From sequence record CP080654.1: 64,000 nucleotides of DNA, one strand, 5' to 3'. Each line of letters opens with the position of its first letter. Within the stretch, counting starts at the first letter, position 1. Below are positions 37,999 to 62,329 of the stretch, in pieces. A program made the position numbers and the translations under genes. This stretch comes from a plasmid. The notes under the pieces were generated by a model that searched no databases, had not been told where the DNA came from, and worked only from the letters and a program-made list of their open reading frames with translations.

Positions 37999-38685
37999 TT
38001 ATAACAATCTGTTAACATGCCGAGTGATAATATCCCTGACATTTTTCATTACCGGTTCCAACAGCTCACTTAGATGAAGAACGATGAAGGCATCATCACG
38101 ACTACTAATATTAAGCTTGGTTAGTATTTGACTGCTTTTATTTCTGGAAGATCCGTTTTCCAGTCCAAGAAACTGCCCCATAATCTTGTGACTTGCACCG
38201 CCTGCATAAAACCCAAAAAAATCATACTCACTTTTATCAAGCCTTTTGACAGCCCTCATAAAATTAACGACATCCGCATGCAGGGGAAGAGATCTTGTTA
38301 TTCTTTTAATGGAGTTTGATGCCCTTCCAAACTTCCATAAAAAGTGGACAGCACCATCACTGACAAATTCCTCGATCATAAAATCAAATTGCTTTCCATT
38401 GATATAAATACATCTTTCAATATGGAAGTTAGATTGTTCAATTTGAATCAGTAGTTCTAACTCTCGAAGTCCAAGAAAGGTGTCAGTACCAATCAGTTCC
38501 TCCCAACTTCGTTCGGACTGCAAAGCGCCCCCGAACTCATACAAAAATGCTGAATTGAATGCCGGAAATTCTCCTGACTGATTATGAATACAAACCGGGA
38601 AAGAATAGTGCATGATGAGCGCCTCAAGAGAAGAAGCGAGGGATTGACGGCAGGTGTCTTTTTCATTACGATCCATCGGATACAT
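37999..38685 (-). CDS. traJ: TraJ transcriptional activator of the tra operon.
   Basis: The internal ATG gives MYPMDRNEKD..., identical to the first residues of F TraJ (MYPMDR). There is a C-terminal HTH-like segment. Confidence 0.85.
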   Translation of the reverse strand: MYPMDRNEKDTCRQSLASSLEALIMHYSFPVCIHNQSGEFPAFNSAFLYEFGGALQSERSWEELIGTDTFLGLRELELLIQIEQSNFHIERCIYINGKQFDFMIEEFVSDGAVHFLWKFGRASNSIKRITRSLPLHADVVNFMRAVKRLDKSEYDFFGFYAGGASHKIMGQFLGLENGSSRNKSSQILTKLNISSRDDAFIVLHLSELLEPVMKNVRDIITRHVNRLL

Positions 38686-38694
38686 AGAGGCCTC

Positions 38695-38775
38695 CTTGTT
38701 AGGTCTACTATGGGCAGTAGGTATGAGAAGGTGAATGCTTCTCATACCTGCGAAACTCAAATTTTCACTTACTAT
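38695..38775 (+). ncRNA. finP: FinP antisense RNA (predicted), antisense to the traJ 5' UTR.
   Basis: Two adjacent hairpins on the plus strand, ctactatgggcagtag and gtatgagaag-gtgaatg-cttctcatac, followed by a T-rich tract. The location between traM and traJ is as in F. The ends are approximate. Confidence 0.5.
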
Positions 38776-39329: not shown

Positions 39330-39650
39330 TAGAGTCCAGACTACACTCTAGAGTCTAGAGCATAAAGTATCTCATCAAAAGGGACTACACTCTAGAGTGC
39401 AATCCCAATTATCCATCTGATTTTATAGACGATAGTCGTTATCGACTCTAAAAAGACTCTATCCAGACTCTATTTAGAGTCTGGATAGAGTCTGTTTATA
39501 CTTTCTAAATGAAAGAAACAGAAAGTTCACTCACATAAGCTCATAATTTAAAGGATAAATCTGCAAAATTTTAATTTTGCGTGGGGTGTGGTGATTTTGT
39601 GGTGAGGAGTGCATATATGTTGAGTCTCGGTCTTGGATGGGTTAAGGTTA
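39330..39650. other. oriT: oriT (F-type origin of transfer) with TraM/TraY/IHF binding repeats and the nic site.
   Basis: ttttgcgtggggtgtggtgattttgtggtgagg at ~39577-39609 matches the F nic region GCGTGGGGTGT|GGTG. Upstream are inverted repeats tagagtctagag / actctagagtg and direct repeats ctatccagactctatttagagtctggatagagtct, typical of sbm/sby sites. Confidence 0.85.
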
Positions 39651-40196: not shown

Positions 40197-40529
40197 TTAA
40201 AAATCTACGGCATCTATACCTGGATAATAATCGGCATCACTATCAAAATGAAAAAGCAGATACCCGCCCTCCCGGTGCATTAGTATGAGATTTTTGCGTA
40301 AAAATTTTGACACCCCACCTCTTTTTAGCGCCAGAAGATGGCGTTTGAAATCATACATCCTTATAACACAACCATAAGGTGTATCATGTATCCACTCTAA
40401 GTAACTATCGCAAGTTAGATAATTGGTTGTTGATGAAAGCACCTGAAGAACTCTGATATCACCTTCTTCCATATGTGAAATACTGATACAGACAGCTTTA
40501 AATTCAAACATAAGTATTCCCACCATCAA
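40197..40529 (-). CDS. Hypothetical protein (AT-rich, about 100 aa).
   Basis: ORF between gene X and the orf273-like gene. No motif. Confidence 0.35.
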   Translation of the reverse strand: MMVGILMFEFKAVCISISHMEEGDIRVLQVLSSTTNYLTCDSYLEWIHDTPYGCVIRMYDFKRHLLALKRGGVSKFLRKNLILMHREGGYLLFHFDSDADYYPGIDAVDF

Positions 40530-40558: not shown

Positions 40559-41380
40559 TTAGCCTTTAAGAGTGCGGAATTTCTCCGCAATTAACCACAA
40601 TGCCTTATTGAGTTTGACATCACCATCAATTGCTTTTACTGGCCGGGTTGTTGTTCTTTTCCCTTTTTCAGTTCGGCCAGGCAAACCGCCTTTAATCAGA
40701 TTTTCCTGGACCCTTTGATATGTAGTCCAGATGTCATATTTTTTATCTTCATAACGGCGCGGATGAATTATCTGTTCAATACTGACCGGAGATTTATTTT
40801 CATCTTCATATCGGTAGGTTAATGCAGCTTGTCCAAACAGACGCTGTTCTTCCTTGGTTAAGGCAATAGACTTCATGACATCAACGCCTTCAGTTATTTT
40901 ATCGAAAATTCCCAGAACTTCGTAAGCACCTTCGATAACCCTTCCCACAATATCACCTTTATGAGGTACACGAATCTCACCAAACGACGTACCGCACACA
41001 AGGCCATTTGTGCATACAAAACGGAACATACCCGGGATCATTTGATAACTGGACGATCCATCATGCGAGTTAAGAAGAATGATTTCGGGTACTTCTGTTC
41101 CTTTATTGGCCCCTTCACGGCGAAGTCTTACCATATGCTTAGTATGCCCCCGTTTATCCTCATCCCTTACTCGTGACTGACAGGCAAAAAATGGCTGGAA
41201 ACCTTCTTCACGTAATTTATCCAGCAGTGTAATGGTTGGAATATAGGTATAGCGATCACTACGTGAATTATGCTTTTCTTCTGAAAACACAGAAGGTACA
41301 ACCTTGACTAATTCATCGTTAGTCAGTGGGCGTTCCTGACGAATGGAATGAGTAAGTCCAAATCGGGATGCTAAACGCAT
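40559..41380 (-). CDS. Leading-region 273-aa protein (F orf273-like; DUF932-like by recollection).
   Basis: 273 aa from the internal ATG (MRLASRFGLTHSIRQERPLTNDELVKV...). The longer ORF upstream runs into the Frpo-like repeat and is an artefact. Confidence 0.7.
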   Translation of the reverse strand: MRLASRFGLTHSIRQERPLTNDELVKVVPSVFSEEKHNSRSDRYTYIPTITLLDKLREEGFQPFFACQSRVRDEDKRGHTKHMVRLRREGANKGTEVPEIILLNSHDGSSSYQMIPGMFRFVCTNGLVCGTSFGEIRVPHKGDIVGRVIEGAYEVLGIFDKITEGVDVMKSIALTKEEQRLFGQAALTYRYEDENKSPVSIEQIIHPRRYEDKKYDIWTTYQRVQENLIKGGLPGRTEKGKRTTTRPVKAIDGDVKLNKALWLIAEKFRTLKG

Positions 41381-41409
41381 TTTTTTCTCCTTAATTAGAT
41401 CTGAATTTT

Positions 41410-42160
41410 TTAAACCATCACCCGTTGAGTTGCCGGGGCCGCGGTTTTGACTTTGTGCGGGGACCTGCTGAACCTGCCCCCTGGATATAACCTTCACCCG
41501 TTTGAGAGCCGTTCGCCGCGAGGGCGTAAACGAGCACGGCCCGGTGCAGATGTCCGGGGGTGAGCGGGAAATTTTTTTCGGTCTAATGAAGCGGCAGCGG
41601 AATGGCCGGGAAAAATTTATTGCGAAAGGCTCTGCCGTCCCCTGGACAGCAAGACGGGTTGTGCTTGTCTCAGCCCCGGCGAATGGACTCAAACGGGTGA
41701 TACGGCGCCAGGGGAAAGGAGCAGGCACCCGCCGCAACGACGAAGAGCGCGGGCGCGAAACGGCGTTGCCCTGCAGAGTGCCGGCAGCTTTATCGCCGGC
41801 ACGGTGAAAGCGGCGCGACCGGAACGGTCGCAGCAAGCGCTGCTGTTGACCCTGACCTCAGACATCAGACACTAGCCGTCAGGCCCGAAACCGCGTAGCG
41901 GGTTCGGCGGAGCTTACCGCGTCTTTTCGCGGTTAGCGGAGTGTGGCTCGACGACCGGACAGCGCAGCTGGCCGGGAGCCGAAGGTGTCCAGTATGGGTG
42001 TGCTTTTAAAGCCTTTAAGGGTTAAAAAGAGACATCACAGCAGAAAGAAGAAGAGAAAGCAGGAAGACAGGGGGCAGCAAACAGGGAAAACGCGGAAAGG
42101 AAATACGGGCGGCGCGTGAGCGCGGCCCGGTTTTCCCGGCGACGCAGGCGCGCGGCCTTT
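41410..42160 (-). promoter_or_regulatory. Frpo/ssi-like repeat copy 1: a large imperfect inverted repeat able to form a ssDNA hairpin promoter, with a conserved upstream segment.
   Basis: A >90% identical sequence recurs at ~44118, ~50286 and ~53680, in the same orientation, each immediately 5' of a minus-strand gene block. Arm catcacccgtttgagagccgttcgccg pairs with cggcgaatggactcaaacgggtgata. Confidence 0.7.
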
Positions 42161-42200
42161 TAGCGCAGTCGGGCAGGTGATCCCCTGCCCTTTCGGTTAT

Positions 42201-43034
42201 TTACGCGGCCTCCTGTATTCCGCGCAAAAAGTCCCGCATGGCCCTGAACCGGCGAAGATCTGCCAGTCGCTTTTCAAAGGCATTCAGGTAGTAAACCGGG
42301 GTATACCTCACCCGCCGGTACTGCATCGTGAGCGTGTTACCCGTCACCACTTCCGCCGCTATCCCCAGCAGTGACAGCTGGATGAAGGCCATATCTGCCG
42401 CTACCGGATCGATGTCAATGCAGCTGCCGAACATGTGCATTGAGGGGTTGATATCGGCTTCAAGCAGGCACTCTGCATAGGCGATCAGCATCCCGGCAGC
42501 CCCACACGCCGGATCGCTGACTGTGGCAATCCCTTCCCGGCGGATAGTGTCTCTGACACCTGGCATTAGCATCCGCGCCATCAGACACTGCACTGAATAC
42601 GGGGTAAAATACTGCCCGCGAAAATTATCGCCCAGCTCCAGCTCCATAAAAATAGCGCCGAGGAAATCATGAAATTTCGCCTCCAGCGCACACACCATCA
42701 GGCAGAACATTTCCTGCATGTTCGCGATGTCGGTGGCCCCGTACCGGGCGCAGATTTTCCGGCAGTTCTCCATGCTCTCCGGCGTTCGTATCCGGGCCAT
42801 ATCCAGCTCGCTGGCGGCAAGCGACAGAAAATCACTGAACACTTCCCAGCGCCCCAGATGGCGGCCCGTATCCTTAAATACGCGGATAAAACGGCTCCGG
42901 CTGTACTGCTCGCTCATCATACGCTGAACCGTGGGCACCATTTCCGCGATCTGCTGCCCTGCCTGAATGACAGGGCTGTTATCAGCGGCTTCTCTGGCCA
43001 TATTGAACACATCGGCAAAACTCAGTTGTGACAT
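42201..43034 (-). CDS. HsdM-like (gamma-class N6-adenine methyltransferase-like) protein that lacks the catalytic NPPF/Y motif.
   Basis: 277 aa. Motif X GQYFTPYSVQCLMARML and motif I SDPACGAAGMLIAY are present, with an HsdM-like segment GSCIDIDPVAADMAFIQLSLLGI. No (N/D)PP(F/Y) occurs before the C-terminus. Confidence 0.6.
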   Translation of the reverse strand: MSQLSFADVFNMAREAADNSPVIQAGQQIAEMVPTVQRMMSEQYSRSRFIRVFKDTGRHLGRWEVFSDFLSLAASELDMARIRTPESMENCRKICARYGATDIANMQEMFCLMVCALEAKFHDFLGAIFMELELGDNFRGQYFTPYSVQCLMARMLMPGVRDTIRREGIATVSDPACGAAGMLIAYAECLLEADINPSMHMFGSCIDIDPVAADMAFIQLSLLGIAAEVVTGNTLTMQYRRVRYTPVYYLNAFEKRLADLRRFRAMRDFLRGIQEAA

Positions 43035-43729: not shown

Positions 43730-44083
43730 TCAGTAATCAGCTGCCAGCTCGCTCATAAGGTCGGCACATTCATCATGAGCACGTTCTTCTTCCGCCAGCG
43801 TCAGCATGTAACCCCGTTGAGCCGCCGCGCCAATGAATACCGGACGATCTTTCAGCGGCAGCTTTTCCAGGTAAATCATAGCCATACTCAACAGACGGGA
43901 CGCATAAATCTCGTAGTACAAACCACACCCACGACTTGCCTGTTTTTCCATACGAGCCAGCACCACATCAGCGCGGATCACATCGAAAGGGTTACGGGAA
44001 TGAATGTTGCGCACAAAACAGTCAGTCCGGAGGGTTGTGCTTTCTTTGGTGGAGGGTTTTACGTTGACGTTTTGTATGCTCAT
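43730..44083 (-). CDS. Hypothetical leading-region protein (~117 aa), the first gene after Frpo-like copy 2.
   Basis: MSIQNVNVKPSTKESTTLRTDCFVRNIHSRNPFDVIRADVVLARMEKQ... An ATG lies ~35 nt from the repeat end. Confidence 0.45.
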   Translation of the reverse strand: MSIQNVNVKPSTKESTTLRTDCFVRNIHSRNPFDVIRADVVLARMEKQASRGCGLYYEIYASRLLSMAMIYLEKLPLKDRPVFIGAAAQRGYMLTLAEEERAHDECADLMSELAADY

Positions 44084-44117
44084 CCTACTTTCTCCTCTGT
44101 CTGTTTTTCTGTCTTTT

Positions 44118-44700
44118 AAAACCATCACCCGTTGAGTTGCCGGGGCCGCGGTTTTGACTTTGTGCGGGGACCTGCTGAACCTGCCCCCTGGATATAACCT
44201 TCACCCGTTTGAGAGCCGTTCGCCGCAAGGGCGTAAACGAGCACGGCCCGGTGCAGATGTCCGGGGGTGAGCGGGAAATTTTTTTCGGCCTAATGAAGCG
44301 GCAGCGGAATGGCCGGGGAAAATTTATTGCGAAAGGCCCTGCCGTCCCCTGGACAGCAAGACGGGTTGTGCTTGTCTCAGCCCCGGCGAATGGACTCAAA
44401 CGGGTGATACGGGTACCAGGGGAAAGGAGCAGGCACCCGCCGCAACGACGGAACGCGCGGGCGCGAAACGGCGTTGCCCCGCAGAGTGCCGGCAGCTTTA
44501 TCGCCGGCACGGTGAAAGCGGCGCGACCGGGACGGTCGCAGCAAGCGCTGCCGTTGACCTTTCAGACATCAGACACTAGCCGTCAGGCCCGAAACCGCTT
44601 TGCGGGTTCGGCGGAGCTTACCGCGTCTTTTCGCGGTTAGCGGAGTGTGGCTCGACGACTGGCCAGCTTTGCTGGTCAGGAGCCGAAGGGGTCCAGTGTT
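44118..44700 (-). promoter_or_regulatory. Frpo/ssi-like repeat copy 2 (shorter: its distal segment is truncated).
   Basis: Same sequence as copy 1 from aaaccatcacccgttgagttgccggggccgcgg through ...gcggttagcggagtgtggctcgacga. Confidence 0.7.
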
Positions 44701-44712
44701 GTTATGCCTTTC

Positions 44713-49740: not shown

Positions 49741-50253
49741 TCAAAAGGGGATCTCATCGTCAAAATCGTGACCCGGATCAGGCTGCGAAGGTGGTTGCTG
49801 CGGAGCAGTGTTAGATTTTTTACCTGCAGCCTTACCTTTCCCTTTCGCTGCACCGGAGGTGGCAGGAGGTGGCGTTTGCGGATCAGATTGAGGCTGACTT
49901 TCACGGCGGCCGCCCAGCATCTGCATGGTGCCCCCAACGTTAACCACAACTTCTGTAACGTACTTCTCCAGACCAGATTGATCAGTCCACTTGCGGCTAC
50001 GTAACTGACCTTCGATATAGACCTGAGCACCTTTACGCAGATATTCCCCGGCCACTTCGGCCAGTTTTCCAAACACAACAACACGGTGCCATTCAGTGTT
50101 TTCGCGCATTTGTCCATCCTGTTTGTCACGCCATGTTTCTGACGTGGCCAGGGTGAAATTAGCCACTGCGCCACCGGAAGGCAGATAACGAACTTCGGGA
50201 TCTTGTCCGAGATAACCGACAAGAATGACTTTATTGACGCCACGTGTTGCCAT
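49741..50253 (-). CDS. ssb: Plasmid single-stranded DNA-binding protein.
   Basis: From the internal ATG: [48 protein letters not shown]...[39 protein letters not shown], ending with the acidic tail DFDDEIPF. Confidence 0.95.
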
Positions 50254-50285
50254 AATGAATCTCCTTAATCTGTTGTTTTGCCTTT

Positions 50286-51055
50286 TAAAACCATCACCCG
50301 TTGAGTTGCCGGGGCCGCGGTTTTGACTTTGTGCGGGGACCTGCTGAACCTGCCCCCTGGATATAACCTTCACCCGTTTGAGAGCCGTTCGCCGCAAGGG
50401 CGTAAACGAGCACGGCCCGGTGCAGATGTCCGGGGGTGAGCGGGAAATTTTTTTCGGCCTAATGAAGCGGCAGCGGAATGGCCGGGAAAAATTTATTGCG
50501 AAAGGCCCTGCCGTCCCCTGGACAGCAAGACGGGTTGTGCTTGTCTCAGCCCCGGCGAATGGACTCAAACGGGTGATACGGGTACCAGGGGAAAGGAGCA
50601 GGCACCCGCCGCAACGACGAAGAGCGCGGGCGCGAAACGGCGTTGCCCCGCAGAGTGCCGGCAGTCCTTCGCCGGCACGGTGAAAGCGGCGCGACCGGGA
50701 CGGTCGCAGCAAGCGCTGCCGTTGACCTTGACGTCAGACATCAGACACTAGCCGTCAGGCCCGAAACCGCTTTGCGGGTTCGGCGGAGCTTACCGCGTCT
50801 TTTCGCGGTTAGCGGAGTGTGGCTCGACGACCGGACAGCGCAGCTGGCCGGGAGCCGAAGGTGTCCAGTATGGGTGTGCTTTTAAAGCCTTTAAGGGTTA
50901 AAAAGAGACATCACAGCAGAAAGAAGAAGAGAAAGCAGACAGACAGCAGGCAGCAAACAGGGAAGACGCGGAAAGGAAATGCGGGCGGCGCGTCAGCGCG
51001 GCCCGGTTTTCCCGGCGCCGCAGGCGCGCGGTCTTTCGAGGCGCGGCCAGACGGG
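50286..51055 (-). promoter_or_regulatory. Frpo/ssi-like repeat copy 3 (full length), immediately upstream of ssb.
   Basis: Near-identical to copies 1 and 4 across ~750 bp. Confidence 0.75.
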
Positions 51056-51084: not shown

Positions 51085-51648
51085 TCAGACGGTTATTCTG
51101 AGAATGGCGGTCGCTACCTGGGTATACGTGAATGTTCCCCGCGGCAACGGCTCCCAGACGTCCGCCAGGGACTCCAGCGCCTTTTGCTGACGCGGGCCGT
51201 CCAGACATATTCCAGTCAGAATCCCGCCAGGCTCAAGCAGAGTTAATGCCCGCCGGATATGCCGGATATCATCACCGCGATGAAACGGCGGATTCATGAT
51301 AATTCGTGTATACCGGCGCTCCGGATGATATTCGAGAAAATCTCCGCACCAGATCCGGACCTCCGGGAAATGCGCCTGCAGGTGACGGGCTAACCCGGCG
51401 TGCAGCTCCACGGCGTCACACTTCGCCCGGGGGACTGCATCCCTGATCGCCTGCAGTATGGCGCCCGTTCCGGCACTGGGTTCCAGAATGCGATCGGTTT
51501 CCCGGACATCAGCCAGCTCAACCAGCCGGCGACATTCCGGGGAGGGGGTGACAAAAAGTTGCGAGCTACCCTGAATTTCAGCGACAGGGGCGCGCCCTTC
51601 CAGTTTGTCCCGCATCGCCTGAATACGGTGTTTAAGGTCATGATGCAT
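51085..51648 (-). CDS. SAM-dependent methyltransferase with NPPF motif (putative N6-adenine DNA methyltransferase).
   Basis: Motif I ILEPSAGTGAIL and motif IV IIMNPPF. About 187 aa from MHHDLKHRIQ. Confidence 0.7.
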   Translation of the reverse strand: MHHDLKHRIQAMRDKLEGRAPVAEIQGSSQLFVTPSPECRRLVELADVRETDRILEPSAGTGAILQAIRDAVPRAKCDAVELHAGLARHLQAHFPEVRIWCGDFLEYHPERRYTRIIMNPPFHRGDDIRHIRRALTLLEPGGILTGICLDGPRQQKALESLADVWEPLPRGTFTYTQVATAILRITV

Positions 51649-51695
51649 GAATGTACTCCCTGACCTCCCCGGCAAGATGCCGGGGAGCCTTCCTG

Positions 51696-53051
51696 TTATT
51701 TTTTCGGAATTTCAACGGTTTTCATGTCTGTGATATACACATTCACGAGCGTACAACCGTGCGTCATGCACCGGCGGAAGCGATAGGCGCCGTGTGTTTC
51801 GGTTTCTGCAGCACCCCGCACGCCTTTATAATCAGCGGGTAATTTCGCCCACTCGGCTTTTGTCATTTCCCGGAACCCTTCCCCCGGATAATTGACGATC
51901 GGTGGGCGCTTCGCCGCTTTCTTCGCGTCGCTGGCTTCCTCCGCTGTCGGGGCTTTGTAGTCCGTGATACGGTCGGGCGTGAGTTTCATCGTGCCGCTGT
52001 AGCCCAGAAAGCGATAACCGGGCGTTTCGACTGAACTCACCTCCCCCTTACTCCGGTTAACCCGGAGAATGGTTAACCATTCTCCCCGACTCAGTACCTG
52101 CCCGCCTGGTTCAAATTCCTGTGTTCGGGTGACAACGCCACCGTTTTCATTGAGCATCGCGCGTTCGTAGGCCAGGCGGTTCTGGTAATGATTCACCCAG
52201 CGCTGTTGGTGGTTAATCGTGCGCTCATGACAGCGGATCGCAATATCACGCGCCTGTTCAAAAGTAATGATCTCCTCAGACAGGGCAGAATGGAGAGACA
52301 TCGAGCCCTCATACTGGCTTTTCTCTGCCGGGCGGGGGTATTTGTCGAGCGTGAAGCAGGCATGAATATGATCATAATTACTGACCAGTAACGCCATTTT
52401 CAGATCGAGCGTCTGCGCACGCCACATCGTCATATACTTTTCAGACCGGGCAATGTGCTTTTGGGACTTGCGTAATTCCGCCTCGATTTTTTTGATACGG
52501 CGGTAACGCACATCCGGACGCTCCTTGTATTTCGCGTGCCGCAGAGAGGCCTGCGCGCGCTGTTCCCAGTATTCGGCGCGCTCGAACAGCATCACCGCAC
52601 GTTTCATGCCGTTCTCAATTTTCTGCGCATGCCGGCGCGCGCGGCGCTCGCTGTGGTGGCCTACCAGGATCGGCTGTCCCAGCGGGACAGCCGATGCCAG
52701 CGAATCAACATGCGCAAGCGCCTGCTCCGATTCAACCGCCCGCCGGTCACTGTAGTCACTGAACCGCCCGGCGCGCTGCTCCTGGCGATCAAACAGGGTG
52801 CTGTCCTCGTCCTCGATATCACCGGCGAGGGAAAGCAGGACATCCTCCCGCCCCGGCGTCCAGGCTGGCGCCACAAAAAGTTCCTGTTTGGGCGCCCAGC
52901 GAAAGCCTGCTTTGTTGATCAGGGAATACGTTTCTTCATCGAGCCGTAATGATGCGTAAAGTCGCAATTTATTATCATCGGGTGAATAGGTTGCCCGGTA
53001 AGTCTGGCCTGCGGTGTTTTCCGTCATGATCTGTGCGGTAGTCGGTGCCAT
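51696..53051 (-). CDS. Hypothetical leading-region protein (451 aa), possibly DUF3560-like.
   Basis: Long ORF with coding-like composition. I have no motif-level identification, and the family recall is uncertain. Confidence 0.5.
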   Translation of the reverse strand: MAPTTAQIMTENTAGQTYRATYSPDDNKLRLYASLRLDEETYSLINKAGFRWAPKQELFVAPAWTPGREDVLLSLAGDIEDEDSTLFDRQEQRAGRFSDYSDRRAVESEQALAHVDSLASAVPLGQPILVGHHSERRARRHAQKIENGMKRAVMLFERAEYWEQRAQASLRHAKYKERPDVRYRRIKKIEAELRKSQKHIARSEKYMTMWRAQTLDLKMALLVSNYDHIHACFTLDKYPRPAEKSQYEGSMSLHSALSEEIITFEQARDIAIRCHERTINHQQRWVNHYQNRLAYERAMLNENGGVVTRTQEFEPGGQVLSRGEWLTILRVNRSKGEVSSVETPGYRFLGYSGTMKLTPDRITDYKAPTAEEASDAKKAAKRPPIVNYPGEGFREMTKAEWAKLPADYKGVRGAAETETHGAYRFRRCMTHGCTLVNVYITDMKTVEIPKK

Positions 53052-53102: not shown

Positions 53103-53333
53103 TCAGTTAAATGCGCGTTTCAGTTCCAGCGTGCGGAGTACCTGCCCGAGGGCGGTATTTTTCATCGCGGGGATGTGGACACCGCGCCCTTTGCGGTGAC
53201 TTCTGGCGATATGACGCCCGAAAGCTCTGAGAGCGGGATCAATCTCCGGTGCGGTGATATCTGCGCGCAGAATGCGCGAATGACGACGGGGCTTTACAGC
53301 GCCTGCGGAAGGTGAAAAAATAGAAACGATCAT
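53103..53333 (-). CDS. Hypothetical small basic protein (76 aa).
   Basis: ORF within the block downstream of Frpo-like copy 4. Confidence 0.35.
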   Translation of the reverse strand: MIVSIFSPSAGAVKPRRHSRILRADITAPEIDPALRAFGRHIARSHRKGRGVHIPAMKNTALGQVLRTLELKRAFN

Positions 53334-53424
53334 AAAGTTGACTCCTTATGGTAGTTAACGAAGCCGGAAAAACCGTTCGTGCGATTTTTACGGCGTGGGA
53401 GAAGCAGGGTTTACCCTGCTTTTT

Positions 53425-53652
53425 TCATATCTGCGGTTTGCTTCCCGCTTCTTCTTCCTCCTTCTTAAGCTGATCGGTAATGTCTTCCGGTTCGCCCAGA
53501 AGCCAGCCTTTGACGGGTTCACAGCGTTCAATAAACGCTTTTATCGCCCGTTTTCCGGTCGTGGCCTGCACCCGGGTAAACATCGGCAGATTGCCGCTGG
53601 CATTGCTTCCCAGAAATGCGATCCGATACGTTCGCAATGAAGGATCCTGCAT
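53425..53652 (-). CDS. Hypothetical small protein (75 aa), the first gene after Frpo-like copy 4.
   Basis: ATG ~30 nt from the repeat end. MQDPSLRTYRIAFLGSNASGNLPMFTRVQATTGKRAIKAFIERCEPVKGWLLGEPEDITDQL... Confidence 0.4.
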   Translation of the reverse strand: MQDPSLRTYRIAFLGSNASGNLPMFTRVQATTGKRAIKAFIERCEPVKGWLLGEPEDITDQLKKEEEEAGSKPQI

Positions 53653-53679
53653 TTTTCTTTTTCCTGATTTTTAAAGAAC

Positions 53680-54335
53680 ATCACCCGTTGAGTTGCCGGG
53701 GCCGCGGTTTTGACTTTGTGCGGGGACCTGCTGAACCTGCCCCCTGGATATAACCTTCACCCGTTTGAGAGCCGTTCGCCGCAAGGGCGTAAACGAGCAC
53801 GGCCCGGTGCAGATGTCCGGGGGTGAGCGGGAAATTTTTTTCGGCCTAATGAAGCGGCAGCGGAATGGCCGGGAAAAATTTATTGCGAAAGGCCCTGCCG
53901 TCCCCTGGACAGCAAGACGGGTTGTGCTTGTCTCAGCCCCGGCGAATGGACTCAAACGGGTGATACGGGTACCAGGGGAAAGGAGCAGGCACCCGCCGCA
54001 ACGACGGAACGCGCGGGCGCGAAACGGCGTTGCCCCGCAGAGTGCCGGCAGTCCTTCGCCGGCACGGTGAAAGCGGCGCGACCGGGACGGTCGCAGCAAG
54101 CGCTGCCGTTGACCCTGACGTCAGACATCAGACACTAGCCGCCAGGCCCGAAACCGCGTAGCGGGTTCGGCGGAGCTTACCGCGTCTTTTCGCGGTTAGC
54201 GGAGTGTGGCTCGACGACCGGACAGCGCAGCTGGCCGGGAGCCGAAGGTGTCCAGTATGGGTGTGCTTTTAAAGCCTTTAAGGGTTAAAAAGAGACATCA
54301 CAGCAGGAAGAAGAAGAGAAAGCAGACAGACAGCA
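53680..54335 (-). promoter_or_regulatory. Frpo/ssi-like repeat copy 4.
   Basis: catcacccgttgagttgccggggccgcggttttgactttgtgcgg... is identical to the other copies. It diverges after ...gacagacagcagg. Confidence 0.7.
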
Positions 54336-54435
54336 GGGAGCAAGCCGGAAACGTAAAGATGCAGGCTGGAGAGAATATGTTTTTCATGCCGCCGGAAAGA
54401 AGCCATGATAAACCGGCGGCATACCAGACGGGGCG

Positions 54436-56012: not shown

Positions 56013-56443
56013 TCAGTCCAGCGCGGCGTAAATAGCACTGCATTCGGGGTGAAAGGTGATGTGATTCCAGAGCTGGGCATCACGCAGCATATAAAGGCGA
56101 GTCAGCGCCGGGTTACTGCTGTCATGATGGGCCGCCAGACGGCGATTAATCGCCAGGCTGGTCAGAATAATGCCCGCCGCGTCGGCGCTGACAGTGCGAT
56201 CAAACCAGTTTTCGCTACTGACCAGATGTACCCGGCCACAATCCGGCATCATGTAGCCGCCCCCCTCCGGCAGGCGAATAAAATGCCAGAAGCCGCCCTC
56301 ATAGCCGGGCATCCATTTTTTGGCCAGAGCGTACACCTGTAATTCCGCGAGCATGAAATCCGTGCCGAACAGGTACGGCATAAAAGACAGGCGGTCGGAC
56401 TCCTCAACATTCAGGACCGGGCATGTATTCACATACTGCATGG
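56013..56443 (-). CDS. KlcA/ArdB-family antirestriction-like protein (~143 aa).
   Basis: From the internal ATG: MQYVNTCPVLNVEESDRLSFMPYLFGTDFMLAELQVYALAKKWMPGYEGGFWHFI... The family assignment is from memory of Pfam 'Antirestriction'/KlcA-like leading-region proteins. Confidence 0.55.
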
Positions 56444-56459
56444 ATAAACCTCCGTAATC

Positions 56460-57060
56460 ACATAGACTGCGGCACCGGGTTGTGCCGTGCCGACACGACA
56501 GCCCGGCGAAAAGCGGAAGATGCAGGGGCGACACCGGAGGCCGCAGCGCAGATATAGCGCGAAGCTGGTCTGGACGGTTTTCGAGCGAAACCTGAGCGAG
56601 AAAACGACGGGAAGAACGGCGAGCATCATAAAAAACCTGCGACCGGGCGAGGATGGCGGCGTCAGCGCACCCTTGCATCTGCAGCGGCCGGGCTAAAGTG
56701 AAGGCACGGCACAACCCGTCGCGATGCAGGAGGTTGAATACAGGGTTTCTCTCCCCCGTTTTTCGACCACCGGGAGAAAAGCGGAAGCAGATGTCGCAAC
56801 GCGACAGACGCAGGAATAAGGCCACAGACCGGAGGGATGGGGCCGGGTGAAGCGGAGCCGGCGGCAACGGCAAGCCGGCGACTGCCTTATCCGGGGATGG
56901 CGGCGCCAGCGAACTCCAGCCTCTGCGGCTGCCGGGCTAAAGTGAAGGCACGGCAAAGCCAGCACACGGCACGGCGATAACAGAGGGTTGTGTTCACCCA
57001 AAAGGCCCGGAAACCGGGCCGGGTGGACGCGGAGCCGGCACGGCGACATCCTTATCGCAC
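56460..57060. repeat. GC-rich non-coding region with ~2.5 imperfect direct repeats (unit ~175-240 bp).
   Basis: ctgcagcggccgggctaaagtgaaggcacggcacaacc (56680) recurs as ctgcggctgccgggctaaagtgaaggcacggcaaagcc (56921). ggccgggtgaagcggagccggcggcaacgg recurs as ggccgggtggacgcggagccggcacggcg. gaaaagcggaag occurs twice. Confidence 0.6.
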
Positions 57061-58370: not shown

Positions 58371-58592
58371 TCAATCCAGAAAGCTTTCATCGAGCATCAG
58401 TGCAATATTGAACGCCTCATCCATCAGGACGCTGAGACGTCGCAGACTGATACCGGCAAGCCGTTCCGCCAGTCCGTCGTACCGGTAGTGGTACGTGTCT
58501 TCCAGCACTTTCAGGGTGGTTTTCAGGTCGCAAAGATTGTTCGCCAGCCCGGCCATATCGCGGCGCAGGGCTTCGTGTCCGTCGTAATTCAT
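58371..58592 (-). CDS. Hypothetical small protein (~74 aa).
   Basis: Starts MNYDGHEALRRDMAGLANN. It lies directly downstream of the methyltransferase gene. Confidence 0.35.
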   Translation of the reverse strand: MNYDGHEALRRDMAGLANNLCDLKTTLKVLEDTYHYRYDGLAERLAGISLRRLSVLMDEAFNIALMLDESFLD

Positions 58593-59293
58593 TACGCGGC
58601 CTCCGGGAGCCATTCATCGTTCGCCGCCGGGGTATTTACGGCCCGGTGCATGGCGGCCAGTCGTTCGGTTCCGGCCCGGTGGTACTGCGCCAGCATTTCG
58701 ATGCCGATATAGCGGCGTCCGGCACGGTATGCAGCGACGCAGGTCGAACCGCTTCCGGCAAACGGGTCGAGAACAATCGCGCCCGGGGCGCTGAATGACT
58801 CAATCAGCGGCTGTAGCGCCTCCACCGGTTTCTGCGTCGGATGCAGGGTATTACCGGTATACGGGAAGGGCAGCACATCCGGCAGCGGTTTAAGGGGCGG
58901 CACGGGGCGGCCTTTGGCAAGGACATAAGCCCCTTCATGGCAGTAGTCCACAAATCCGCGTCGGGCCCTGGCGTTACGACGGTTGGAGGCATAGTTTTTG
59001 GTGAACACAAGCTGGCCCACGGCATAGAATCCTGCCGCCTTCCACGCGGCCATAAAGCGGTCCACACGGTTCCAGCTGTAGAAGCTCACCATCAGTGCGT
59101 CTTTTTTAAGGACGCGGTACATCTCCAGCGTGGCCGGTTGCAGCCATTCGTCCGTCACATCCCCGGCAATCTGTCTGCCCTGACGGTCCTTAAAACCGAC
59201 GAGGTAAGGCGGATCGGTCACAATAAGGTCCACGGCACGGTCGGGGAATCCGCGCATCACATCAATACAGTTCCCGAGAATGAATCTGGACAT
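58592..59293 (-). CDS. Beta-class N6-adenine/N4-cytosine DNA methyltransferase (orphan; YhdJ/Dam-like).
   Basis: Motif IV (VTDPPYL) precedes motif I (VLDPFAGSGSTCVAAYRAGRRYIGIE), the circular permutation typical of beta-class MTases. About 233 aa from MSRFILGNCIDVM. Confidence 0.8.
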   Translation of the reverse strand: MSRFILGNCIDVMRGFPDRAVDLIVTDPPYLVGFKDRQGRQIAGDVTDEWLQPATLEMYRVLKKDALMVSFYSWNRVDRFMAAWKAAGFYAVGQLVFTKNYASNRRNARARRGFVDYCHEGAYVLAKGRPVPPLKPLPDVLPFPYTGNTLHPTQKPVEALQPLIESFSAPGAIVLDPFAGSGSTCVAAYRAGRRYIGIEMLAQYHRAGTERLAAMHRAVNTPAANDEWLPEAA

Positions 59294-59729
59294 GGCAGCA
59301 CTCCTGTAGTCTGAGGGGGCAGGAGGCATCACCGCGATACCGTTCCCTGCCGCACGCTGCCTGTTCATCGCGTCCGGTCACGGGTCAGGCCGACCGTGGA
59401 ATACCGCAGCCGTCCGTCTTTTGGACGGCAAGGATATGCCGCGAAAGCGGCTTGAAGGGCGTTCCTTAAAAGGGCGAGGGACTGGCGCACACTCTCAACG
59501 ACGCCGGGCCGGAGCGGAAAAACCGCCCGTCCCGTACCAGACCGGACGCGAGACACTGGCAGCGGGCGGCAGGCTTGCGTTAACTCCAGGCGAACGGGGA
59601 ATTACCGGCATACCTGTCCACAAATCCGGGGCTTAAGATTGTGGATAACCTGAAGGCAAACGACGGAGAAGCGCGGGAGAACAGACGCCACCACGCCTGT
59701 TCTTTTTTTGAACAACCGGAAAGTTTATA

Positions 59730-60694: not shown

Positions 60695-61669
60695 TTAGTC
60701 CTCTTTATTGTAAAGGGCAATCTCCCTGGCCAGCGCCATCTGCGGATCGCCTATAACCTCGATACGGTCATGAGCCAGAGGCCAGGCCTGACGGATAGCT
60801 TCTTCTATGAGGGAAGCCCCTCCCCCGACCAGGAATACCCGGTTAACGTTCCTGAAGGCCGTCAGCTCACTGGTGACACGCGCCCCCAGGGAAGTGATTG
60901 CCTCTGTTATTTTGTTCCGAACCTCGTCAATTTTACCGGCATCGTTGATCACACGCTGCAGATACTGACGATCATTGCGGTTGCGGATGACAGTGTCAGC
61001 GATGAGGGCGCTGGTTTCGCTGTCTGCCGCACGCAGCGCGCCTGCAGCTGCGCGGGTGACCTGTGACACGCCGACAGACGGATTACCGTGCACCGCACTG
61101 ATATCATCAAACTGGCCGACAATCACACCGGCATCGAGCGTGGTACCACCGAGATCGATAATCAGGGTGGTCTCAGCGGGGCCGGGTTTCAGCTCCGCGA
61201 GACGGGAGAACGCCGCCGGTAGTGATTCCGGCATCACCTTCACGTCCGTTACGGTAAATGCCCTGCCCTTATTCAGAACCAGCTCACGCATCAGGTTTTC
61301 CCGTTTGCGTCGTATGTTCTCCTCGTTCCGCTGGCAGTCCCCGTCGTAATACTCACTCAGGGGCAGCGTCACGGTCAGGCTCACCGGCTGCGGCTCCAGT
61401 CCGCTGTTCAGCAGCGCATGATGCACGGCCAGCAGGTTGAGATCACCGTACTGATATTCCACGTTTGTTGTCGGGATGGCATCCCGGCTGACGCTGTCCC
61501 AGGTGTATTTCAGCGTACCCACCTGATAGTTGAACGTTGCCGCACTGAATTCCGCCACTTTCCAGCCATGCCGGAAGGAGTTCGCAGAAACCCGGGTCTG
61601 AAGCTCATCGCCTTCAAACCATGCCAGCTTAACATTAGTTGAACCATCATCGCAGTAAATATTCATCAT
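60695..61669 (-). CDS. parM: ParM/StbA actin-like segregation ATPase.
   Basis: MMNIYCDDGSTNVKLAWFEGD...NLLAVHHALLNSGL...VKVMPESLPAAF...LIIDLGGTTLD...VFLVGGGA parallels R1 ParM. Confidence 0.9.
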   Translation of the reverse strand: MMNIYCDDGSTNVKLAWFEGDELQTRVSANSFRHGWKVAEFSAATFNYQVGTLKYTWDSVSRDAIPTTNVEYQYGDLNLLAVHHALLNSGLEPQPVSLTVTLPLSEYYDGDCQRNEENIRRKRENLMRELVLNKGRAFTVTDVKVMPESLPAAFSRLAELKPGPAETTLIIDLGGTTLDAGVIVGQFDDISAVHGNPSVGVSQVTRAAAGALRAADSETSALIADTVIRNRNDRQYLQRVINDAGKIDEVRNKITEAITSLGARVTSELTAFRNVNRVFLVGGGASLIEEAIRQAWPLAHDRIEVIGDPQMALAREIALYNKED

Positions 61670-61850
61670 TATGCTCCGTCAATTACACTCAATTTGATAC
61701 ATATTATAAGAGCAAAATGAAAAAATAAAAGCCTTATTTCTCATTATGAGTAAAACTGATGAATCAAAATGATATTAATGAGCATTTTGAGTAATTTATG
61801 TTACTCATACTGTTCATGTCGCAGGCGATCTGGATTATCCTCACGCTGTT
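61670..61850. promoter_or_regulatory. Putative parC-like centromere/promoter region upstream of parM.
   Basis: AT-rich, with repeated tgagta / tactca-type motifs (tatgagtaaaac, tttgagtaattt, ttactcatac). Confidence 0.3.
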
Positions 61851-61855
61851 AAATA

Positions 61856-61875
61856 TACTGTATGCATAACCAGTA
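61856..61875 (+). promoter_or_regulatory. LexA (SOS) box upstream of the umuD-like gene.
   Basis: TACTGTatgcataaCCAGTA fits CTGT-N8-ACAG, ~22 nt upstream of the ATG at 61898. Confidence 0.65.
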
Positions 61876-61897
61876 TATTTAGACATCAGGAGGAAAG

Positions 61898-62329
61898 ATG
61901 AAACTGCAGCTTTTCAGCACCGGGAAAGAACTCCCGCCACAGGCCCATCCGTTGTTTGCAGACCTGGCCAGCTGCGGTTTTCCCAGCCCTGCAGCTGACT
62001 ACGTCGAGTCTGACCTGGATCTCCATGATTACTGCATACGGCATCCGAGCGCGACTTACTACCTTCGCGCCAGCGGTGACAGTATGTCCGACGGCAGCCT
62101 TTACAATGGCGATCTGCTGGTTGTGGACTGTGCCGAGAAGCCCCGGCATGGCGATATTGTTGTGGCCAGCGTGCAGGGGGAGTTTACGGTCAAACGGTTG
62201 CTGCTGACGCCACGACTGACGCTGCAGCCCATGAACGCCGCCTGGTCGCCGATTTATCCCGACCCGGACGATCTGGATATCTTTGGCGTCGTCACGCACA
62301 TCATCCACCGCCCGAGGGAGATGTACTGA
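61898..62329 (+). CDS. umuD: UmuD/MucA/ImpA-like S24 self-cleaving peptidase (translesion synthesis accessory).
   Basis: 143 aa. LexA-like fold signature ...[24 protein letters not shown]... with K at the expected spacing (VKRLLL). Confidence 0.85.

Follow-up and report, generated by a model that had tools for sequence, protein, structure and literature searches.

The leading region of a pKpQIL-like IncFII(K) plasmid, represented by the 64,000-nucleotide (nt) stretch of sequence record CP080654.1 analysed here (the window), contains four direct, co-oriented copies of a repeat, each of which is very probably a class 1 single-stranded DNA (ssDNA) promoter of the Frpo/ssi (ssp1) family joined to accessory sequence. 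A first-pass annotation, made from the DNA letters without database searches, had proposed a Frpo/ssi-like architecture for the four repeats. This proposal is upheld by full-length homology to F ssiD, by the relation of the repeats to the nicked strand, by a hairpin that folds preferentially on the transferred (T) strand, by covariation within its stem and by the place of each copy directly 5' of a gene block, to which is added the lack of a consensus promoter in the duplex form. Neither the type of element nor its location is new. The underlying biology is established for F, ColIb-P9 and pESBL, and both the sequence family and the four-copy layout have already been catalogued in Klebsiella-type plasmids; only the accessory hairpin with its purine tract, and the apparent homogenisation of the copies, are new.

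Four repeats on the transferred strand

The strand on which the repeats act can be read from the plasmid context. An annotated relative is typed as IncFIB/IncFII, MOBF and MPF_F, and an F-type oriT nick-region motif, TTTGCGTGGGGTGTGGTG, which also occurs in F, was read on the + strand at 39577..39594. The motif is flanked by traM (minus strand) and an SLT transglycosylase gene (plus strand), with FinP nearby (38679-38757, Rfam scan), a layout that is the same as in F. By analogy with the F nick site, the nick presumably falls between 39589 and 39590 of the + strand. A + strand nicked at this point is the T strand, and the window above 39.6 kb is thus the leading region. All genes of the leading region lie on the minus strand and read towards oriT, so that the T strand is their template. 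The nick motif of F shares its strand with ssiD/Frpo, and the same relation holds in the window, where the four copies are located 1.8-14.1 kb downstream of the nick motif and on the same strand as the motif.

The four co-oriented copies that had been noticed at first pass were recovered by a repeat search of the window and by alignment. Their earlier coordinates were right to ~15 nt, copy 4 starting at ~53667-53670 rather than 53680 and ending near 54351. A unit of 0.6-0.75 kb is indeed present, although it is better described as a composite of a ~370-nt core that is homologous to Frpo and a separable distal module. The cores, all on the + strand, occupy 41405..41775 (copy 1), 44112..44483 (copy 2), 50281..50652 (copy 3) and 53667..54039 (copy 4), and display 96-99% identity between copies. 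Within them a family of 300-nt segments (41407-41706, 44114-44413, 50283-50582 and 53670-53969) is 98-100% identical, while further repeat families cover the distal part. A MAFFT alignment placed a common left boundary of the copies at ...AACCATCACCCG, the boundary sequence of all copies reading ...AACCATCACCCGTTGAG... in this alignment. The right ends are unequal, at ~42165, ~44711, ~51040 and ~54351 for copies 1 to 4, respectively. The repeats take up nearly all of four exceptionally long intergenic gaps (820, 629, 831 and 783 nt) in a region that is elsewhere densely packed with minus-strand genes. Consistent with the earlier claim that each copy sits directly 5' of a minus-strand gene block, the distance from core to start codon is 18-31 nt in every copy, with a ribosome-binding site in between.

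Frpo was reportedly defined in F by Masai and Arai in 1997. The reference sequences used for comparison were those of Supplementary Table 2 of Samuel et al. 2024 (PMC11541004). In blastn searches positions 4-348 of the 351 nt of F ssiD, the original Frpo, aligned with every copy at ~68% identity (E ~2e-20), the match on copy 1 extending over 41415-41771 and over the equivalent positions in the others. The Frpo' 1 candidate of Serratia marcescens was 97-98% identical to the cores over ~375 nt, and the published Frpo' 3 opens with the left flank and core of copy 4, letter for letter. Assignment of all four copies draws on the repeat search, the alignment, ssiD homology and folding, to which copies 1 and 3 add Pfam assignments and synteny with F, and copy 4 its identity to Frpo' 3. 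A scan with Rfam 15 returned no gathering-threshold match in 30-64 kb besides FinP and the antisense RNA AS-pc01, and nothing at E<=1 in 41300-42260.

Folding with DNA parameters predicted for copy 1 a single long and imperfect hairpin that spans 41434-41757 and includes internal loops as well as G·T wobbles. The inverted repeat quoted at first pass, CACCCGTTTGAGAGCCGTTCGCCG pairing with CGGCGAATGGACTCAAACGGGTG, is real and forms the middle of this much longer structure. The 371-nt unit of copy 1 has a predicted energy of -96.1 kcal/mol (z -6.0) on the + strand versus -79.8 kcal/mol (z -3.6) on the minus strand, and the corresponding values are -102.7 versus -87.3 kcal/mol for copy 2, -103.1 versus -88.4 kcal/mol for copy 3, and -103.4 versus -88.3 kcal/mol for copy 4. 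A hairpin not favoured on the transferred strand had been named beforehand as a result that would speak against a Frpo-like element; in all four copies the advantage lies with the T strand, by 14.7-16.3 kcal/mol, against a background of -0.5 ± 5.9 kcal/mol in windows of the same size. Fold z-scores range from -4.6 to -6.0 relative to dinucleotide shuffles, well outside what chance would give, and after GC correction the four cores are the most structured places of 39.6-64 kb in a 300-nt sliding scan.

The hairpin is also conserved among relatives. An alignment was assembled from 17 homologues with pairwise identities of 55-99%, namely the four copies of the window, the two of F (Frpo1/2) and a further eleven drawn from six plasmids of Salmonella, Raoultella, E. 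coli and Klebsiella. Across this set 95.9% of the cells of the consensus hairpin are paired, and 15 pairs have changed on both sides, versus 7.8 ± 1.7 in shuffled alignments (0/500 reach 15) and <=4 in slid controls. The outer segments of the hairpin are invariant among the homologues, and the stems covary down to 55% identity.

Proposed mode of action, alternatives and candidate promoter boxes

In the mechanism that we propose for the four repeats, the + strand would enter the recipient 5'-first from the nick near 39590, and the four cores would arrive within the first ~14 kb, with copy 1 first and copy 4 last. While the T strand is naked, each ~370-nt core would fold into its long imperfect hairpin, the stem of which would mimic duplex promoter DNA while the mismatched internal loops would provide a pre-opened region. 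Host sigma-70 RNA polymerase would bind the hairpin and transcribe the T strand towards the nick, running into the gene block that starts immediately past the core. The genes so expressed would be the DUF932 gene, the methylase block, the ssb-parB-like-psiB-psiA block, and the DUF3560 and methyltransferase genes. The transcripts probably prime complementary-strand synthesis too, and the ensuing conversion to double-stranded DNA would remove the hairpin and turn the promoter off, such that expression would be limited to a transient zygotic burst.

For polymerase binding, activity confined to ssDNA, priming and the exact -35/-10 boxes, we infer what these repeats do from work on F, ColIb-P9 and pESBL. 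Deletion of Frpo1/2 in F abolished early expression (PMC9849209), the start sites of class 1 promoters in pESBL were mapped by 5' rapid amplification of cDNA ends (5' RACE) (PMC12672017), and ssp1/Frpo transcripts prime conversion in vivo, with ssp2 acting as a roadblock (Fraikin et al., bioRxiv 10.64898/2026.01.09.698686). Several points weigh against the promoter assignment. Activity is attributed by homology, at ~68% identity to the F element that was tested. The structure used to assess covariation was derived from, and tested on, one alignment; and the 115 G·T wobbles versus 8 A·C mismatches counted in stem cells form a biased comparison, the + strand being the one on which the structure was predicted. 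The apex, with its A/T-rich UP-like tract, varies strongly among homologues, some of which lack it. Finally, among 21 homologues no -35/-10 pair was both high-scoring and conserved in the family, leaving three candidates distributed over two arms.

It is conceivable, though improbable, that the repeats are mainly or only priming sites for complementary-strand synthesis rather than promoters of translatable mRNA. F ssiD/Frpo was initially identified as a signal for priming, the priming of conversion in vivo by its transcripts would be in keeping with such a role, and homology and a strand-specific hairpin fit it equally well. Every core, however, is followed at 18-31 nt by a start codon with its ribosome-binding site, and the homologous Frpo1/2 are needed for early protein production in F. 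The promoter and priming roles are also compatible, and the distinction is one of emphasis rather than a true alternative. The fact that the repeats fill whole inter-operon gaps, and that the distal module holds several short GC-rich hairpins, could instead point to elements that act in double-stranded DNA, as regulatory regions, as terminators or insulators, or as binding sites for plasmid proteins, the long hairpin being incidental. This we regard as very unlikely. No sigma-70 consensus was found in the duplex, nor an intrinsic terminator on the coding (minus) strand in a scan of 41300-42300, and folding is strongly biased towards the T strand, with conserved G·T wobbles that become A·C on the mRNA strand. 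Indeed, compensatory changes maintain a hairpin of ~160 base pairs for which a duplex function has no need.

The high identity of the copies within the plasmid (96-99%, versus 84% in F and 66-81% in others), together with mosaic differences that point to homogenisation, raises the question of whether the repeats are selfish or neutral duplicated DNA, such as recombination scars or sequences resembling miniature inverted-repeat transposable elements, that have undergone gene conversion and lack a function. This view is very unlikely, as the position of the copies directly 5' of gene blocks is conserved across IncF and IncI plasmids, their outer segments are invariant and their stems covary in distant homologues, and neither a transposase nor terminal inverted repeats or target duplications were observed. 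A coding role for the open reading frames (ORFs) of 101-143 amino acids, which occur on both strands, merits almost no credence. Each copy does contain stop-free runs of 100-140 codons, and hypothetical proteins are annotated there in some database records. In the F, Salmonella and Raoultella homologues, however, there are in-frame stops and indels that are not multiples of three, past which the translations diverge completely. The reading frame is thus not kept among homologues, which confirms the first-pass view that the long ORFs are spurious, and the scarcity of stops is accounted for by the GC content of 60-65%.

Returning to the class 1 promoter assignment, the duplex form yielded no sigma-70 consensus promoter on either strand, in line with an element that would be inactive in double-stranded DNA. 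Candidate boxes were sought within the hairpin by an approximate sigma-70 hexamer scan run over the 21 homologues. The hairpin contains a conserved 4x4 internal loop, gtaa at 41526..41529 on the 5' side opposite ctca at 41670-41673, which may be a pre-melted promoter region, and -35-like boxes are located in the paired stem at 41644-41649 (TGGACA), 41502-41507 (TTGAGA) and 41619-41624 (TTGCGA, behind the A/T tract), with internal loops 17-19 nt from the boxes. In the first putative assignment TTGAGA (41502-07), N19 and TAAACG would form a promoter on the 5' arm directed towards the apex; its ssiD counterpart, TTGAGA-N17-CATACT, has a good score in the old ssiD entry but a lower one in the complete sequence of F, and ColIb does not contain it. 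The second candidate, on the 3' arm, would consist of the A/T tract, TTGCGA (41619-24), N17 and TGGACA. The third, also on the 3' arm, would pair TGGACA (41644-49), after N17-19, with the ctca/gtaa loop. TGGACA at 41644-49 is fully paired and is found in all homologues as well as in F and ColIb; no -35-like box other than TGGAC(A/T/G) is common to all members, and the -10 partner of this box scored poorly. In the second and third assignments the 3' arm would be the non-template strand, and RNA polymerase would reach the gene by way of the 5' arm, the transcript having a leader of ~140-160 nt. We favour this geometry, with low confidence.

Two further pairs were rejected. TTGACT-N17-GAACCT, the top hexamer hit of the window, has a -10 element that is not conserved, and TTGACT...TATAAC does not form a canonical pair, its elements being separated by 33 nt (5' arm) or ~29 nt (3' arm). 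A terminator role gained no support, as no GC-rich hairpin followed by a U-run was found on the coding strand. A scan of 41300-42300 found no intrinsic terminator on the minus strand, its sole hit being on the + strand at 42171-42190, outside the repeat. As a separate observation, the ssiD entry D90178 and the complete F sequence (NC_002483.1, 13657-14004) differ by a 1-nt indel in the -10-like hexamer of the first assignment, CATACT in the former corresponding to CATCACT in the latter, which markedly alters the hexamer score.

The distal module

Behind the core of copy 1 the distal module (41776..42165, + strand) comprises hairpin A (~41777-41803), hairpin B (41815..41831), several further short GC-rich hairpins and a purine-rich tract. 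By alignment its equivalents, also on the + strand, are 44484-44711, which is truncated, 50653-51040 and 54040-54351. Hairpin B, GCGACCG-GAA-CGGTCGC, is present once per repeat, at 41815-41831, 44523-44539, 50691-50707 and 54078-54094 on the + strand, and these are exactly the four sites at which it occurs in the window, where 0.24 chance matches are expected. It follows every class 1 core examined, ~40-45 nt past the core end, in plasmids of Klebsiella, Raoultella, Salmonella and E. coli and in F, both F copies included. Its pairing is complete (105/105 cells), 3 of the 7 pairs have changed on both sides, none of 500 shuffles matches its score and slid controls collapse. The stem variants are GCGACCG/CGGTCGC, GCATCCG/CGGATGC and GCATCCT/AGGATGC, and the loop is variable.

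The module is separable from the class 1 core. Its first part occurs behind non-homologous hairpins in S. enterica candidates, and in other plasmids at sites without a class 1 match; its later part exists in at least two unrelated variants. Differences between the modules within the window fall mostly in hairpin loops. Purine-rich tracts are present in copies 1, 3 and 4, at 42020-42125 (79% purine on the T strand), 50896-51001 and 54283-54351, and with 76-80% purine on the T strand they exceed the regional mean (0.49 ± 0.07) by more than 4 standard deviations. In F a purine-rich tract of similar composition, although non-homologous, lies behind both Frpo1 and Frpo2. No claim is made as to the strand on which the module acts, as its strand bias of 3-6 kcal/mol is within the background spread. 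An AAGCGG hexamer at 41808-41813, a sequence common to PriA-type (phiX174-type ssi) primosome assembly sites, and the conserved hairpins of the module on the T strand may hint at a site of this kind.

The idea that these distal ~250-400 nt constitute a distinct functional module operating at the single-strand level, rather than spacer, is tentative and on balance doubtful. Such a module might form a barrier that holds up synthesis of the complementary strand, or transcription reading through from the upstream unit, by analogy with F ssp2. It might equally serve as a loading region for SSB or the primosome, keeping the Frpo hairpins single-stranded and independent of one another.

Spread, relatives and surrounding features

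The first-pass annotation considered four copies to be more than is usual, a view that our searches do not support. The 771-nt copy 1 matches 3,930 PLSDB records, mostly conjugative Klebsiella plasmids and usually at four places per record, and among sampled plasmids those of the Klebsiella type mostly have four places, while E. coli IncF plasmids have two to four. Thus, four copies are normal for the lineage and typical of Klebsiella IncFII(K) plasmids. The 13-kb array with all four copies is found at 99.8% identity in many Klebsiella, Citrobacter and E. coli plasmids. A Serratia island has one Frpo before ssb and three Frpo', among 13,089 Frpo homologues identified in 6,006 elements (Samuel et al. 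2024, PMC11541004), pESBL has six ssDNA promoters of three classes, mapped by 5' RACE (Wen et al., PMC12672017), and a 2026 paper in Nucleic Acids Research annotated Frpo across PLSDB with the query sequences of Samuel et al. In the literature on the pKpQIL/pKF3-94 leading region we did not find the repeats described.

The copies of this plasmid are more alike than those of its relatives. Paralogue identity is 96-99%, versus 84% in F and 66-81% in Raoultella/Klebsiella plasmids, the copies of which cluster by position, and the few differences among the window copies are shared in mosaic combinations. These comparisons suggest recent gene conversion or duplication. If the copies are kept near-identical by gene conversion, the leading region would be a cassette system.

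F Frpo1 (ssiD; ssp1a) and Frpo2 (ssp1b) are among the closest known systems. They share with the window repeats full-length homology, the same strand with respect to nic, a long imperfect hairpin, the same downstream genes by synteny (DUF932/ygeB; ssb-psiB-psiA), and hairpins A and B with a purine-rich tract behind the core. In contrast to F, which has two copies, the window has four; identity between the two systems is ~68%, and the apex in the window differs, carrying a branched insertion of ~60 nt. The S. marcescens Frpo' 1-3 (CP047692.1) are 97-98% identical to the window copies, the flank of Frpo' 3 is that of copy 4 and the four-copy layout is the same; they differ in coming from another host record, in that the published entries end ~30 nt into the distal module, and in being computational candidates. 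The ColIb-P9 ssi1-3 and pESBL class 1 promoters belong to the same class according to the literature (PMC12672017). They contain the inner hairpin motifs TGTCCGGGGG...CCCCTGGAC and a structural counterpart of hairpin A, and are likewise dispersed before leading-region operons. However, blastn detects only a 43-nt stretch (79%), there are three copies, and the outer arms, including the F-type invariant TTGAC and TTTGAGA boxes, are lacking.

Class 2 and 3 elements (ssp2/'Frpo3' before klcA/ardB and ardA; ssp3 before M.EcoGIX) are also hairpin promoters of the T strand in the leading region, but have no sequence homology to the four repeats, and for class 2 a replication roadblock at ssp2 has been described (bioRxiv 10.64898/2026.01.09.698686). 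More distantly, rolling-circle sso and the promoters of phage N4 are ssDNA hairpins that recruit an RNA polymerase (PMC7690428 and general knowledge). These again are not homologous; sso functions in priming only, and the N4 promoters are hairpins of 5-7 base pairs used by a phage polymerase.

Each core is predicted, from its position, to drive the gene block behind it. Behind copy 1 are genes for DUF932 (40559-41380) and DUF5983 (40197-40529), assigned by Pfam, and copy 1 is the positional equivalent of F Frpo1, which precedes the DUF932, ygeB-type gene. Copy 2 is followed by the gene at 43730-44083, two small ORFs and an N6 DNA methylase gene (42201-43034). Copy 3 is the positional equivalent of F Frpo2, being followed by ssb (49741-50253), DUF905, a ParB-like gene, psiB, psiA and downstream ORFs. 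Behind copy 4 are 53425-53652, 53103-53333, a DUF3560 gene (51696-53051) and a methyltransferase gene (51085-51675). All of these genes are on the minus strand, and in F the blocks of copies 2 and 4 are without a class 1 promoter. The leading region would thereby divide into four early transcription units, in which the elements would time the first seconds of plasmid establishment by expressing anti-SOS genes, ssb, methylases and other early genes from the incoming strand. This is of interest because pKpQIL-type plasmids are the main vehicles of the KPC carbapenemase in Klebsiella. For annotation, the label of class 1 ssDNA promoter can be applied to the four "empty" gaps of 0.6-0.8 kb and to the hypothetical ORFs that are sometimes called there.

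Some further features touch these blocks. In NZ_MT560073.1 (16410-17390), an otherwise near-identical relative, ISKpn26 lies directly downstream of copy 1, and the annotation there is without the DUF932 gene, oriT and the proximal tra genes that the window has at this place, trbE being next. Downstream of copy 4, between the two small ORFs, Rfam places AS-pc01, an antisense RNA to pHK01_035, at 53328-53424 on the + strand (97.7 bits; gathering score 79); the surrounding 53150-53449 folds better on the + strand (-60.2 kcal/mol) than on the minus strand (-49.6 kcal/mol).

Other structured sites were seen beyond the four repeats. The segment 56447-56736 (+ strand) is homologous to ssDNA promoters of the class 2 type, namely Frpo'4 / Frpo*1 of Samuel et al. 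from an insect metagenome, which correspond to ssp2/'Frpo3'. This site has a long hairpin (-72.4 kcal/mol, z -4.8, on the + strand; -65.1 kcal/mol on the minus strand), lies directly upstream of a PF03230 antirestriction gene (56013-56441, minus strand), and has a partial duplicate at 56892-57054, where its 3' arm recurs at 84% identity, 244 nt on. Upstream of a DNA methylase gene (~58592-59293, minus strand), the GC-rich intergenic stretch 59300-59650 is structured (-85.6 kcal/mol per 300 nt, GC-corrected Z -2.6) and is possibly a class 3-like ssDNA promoter. At 61600-62000, which is AT-rich (33-40% GC), the predicted structure is strong for its composition on both strands, with GC-corrected Z values to -3.5.

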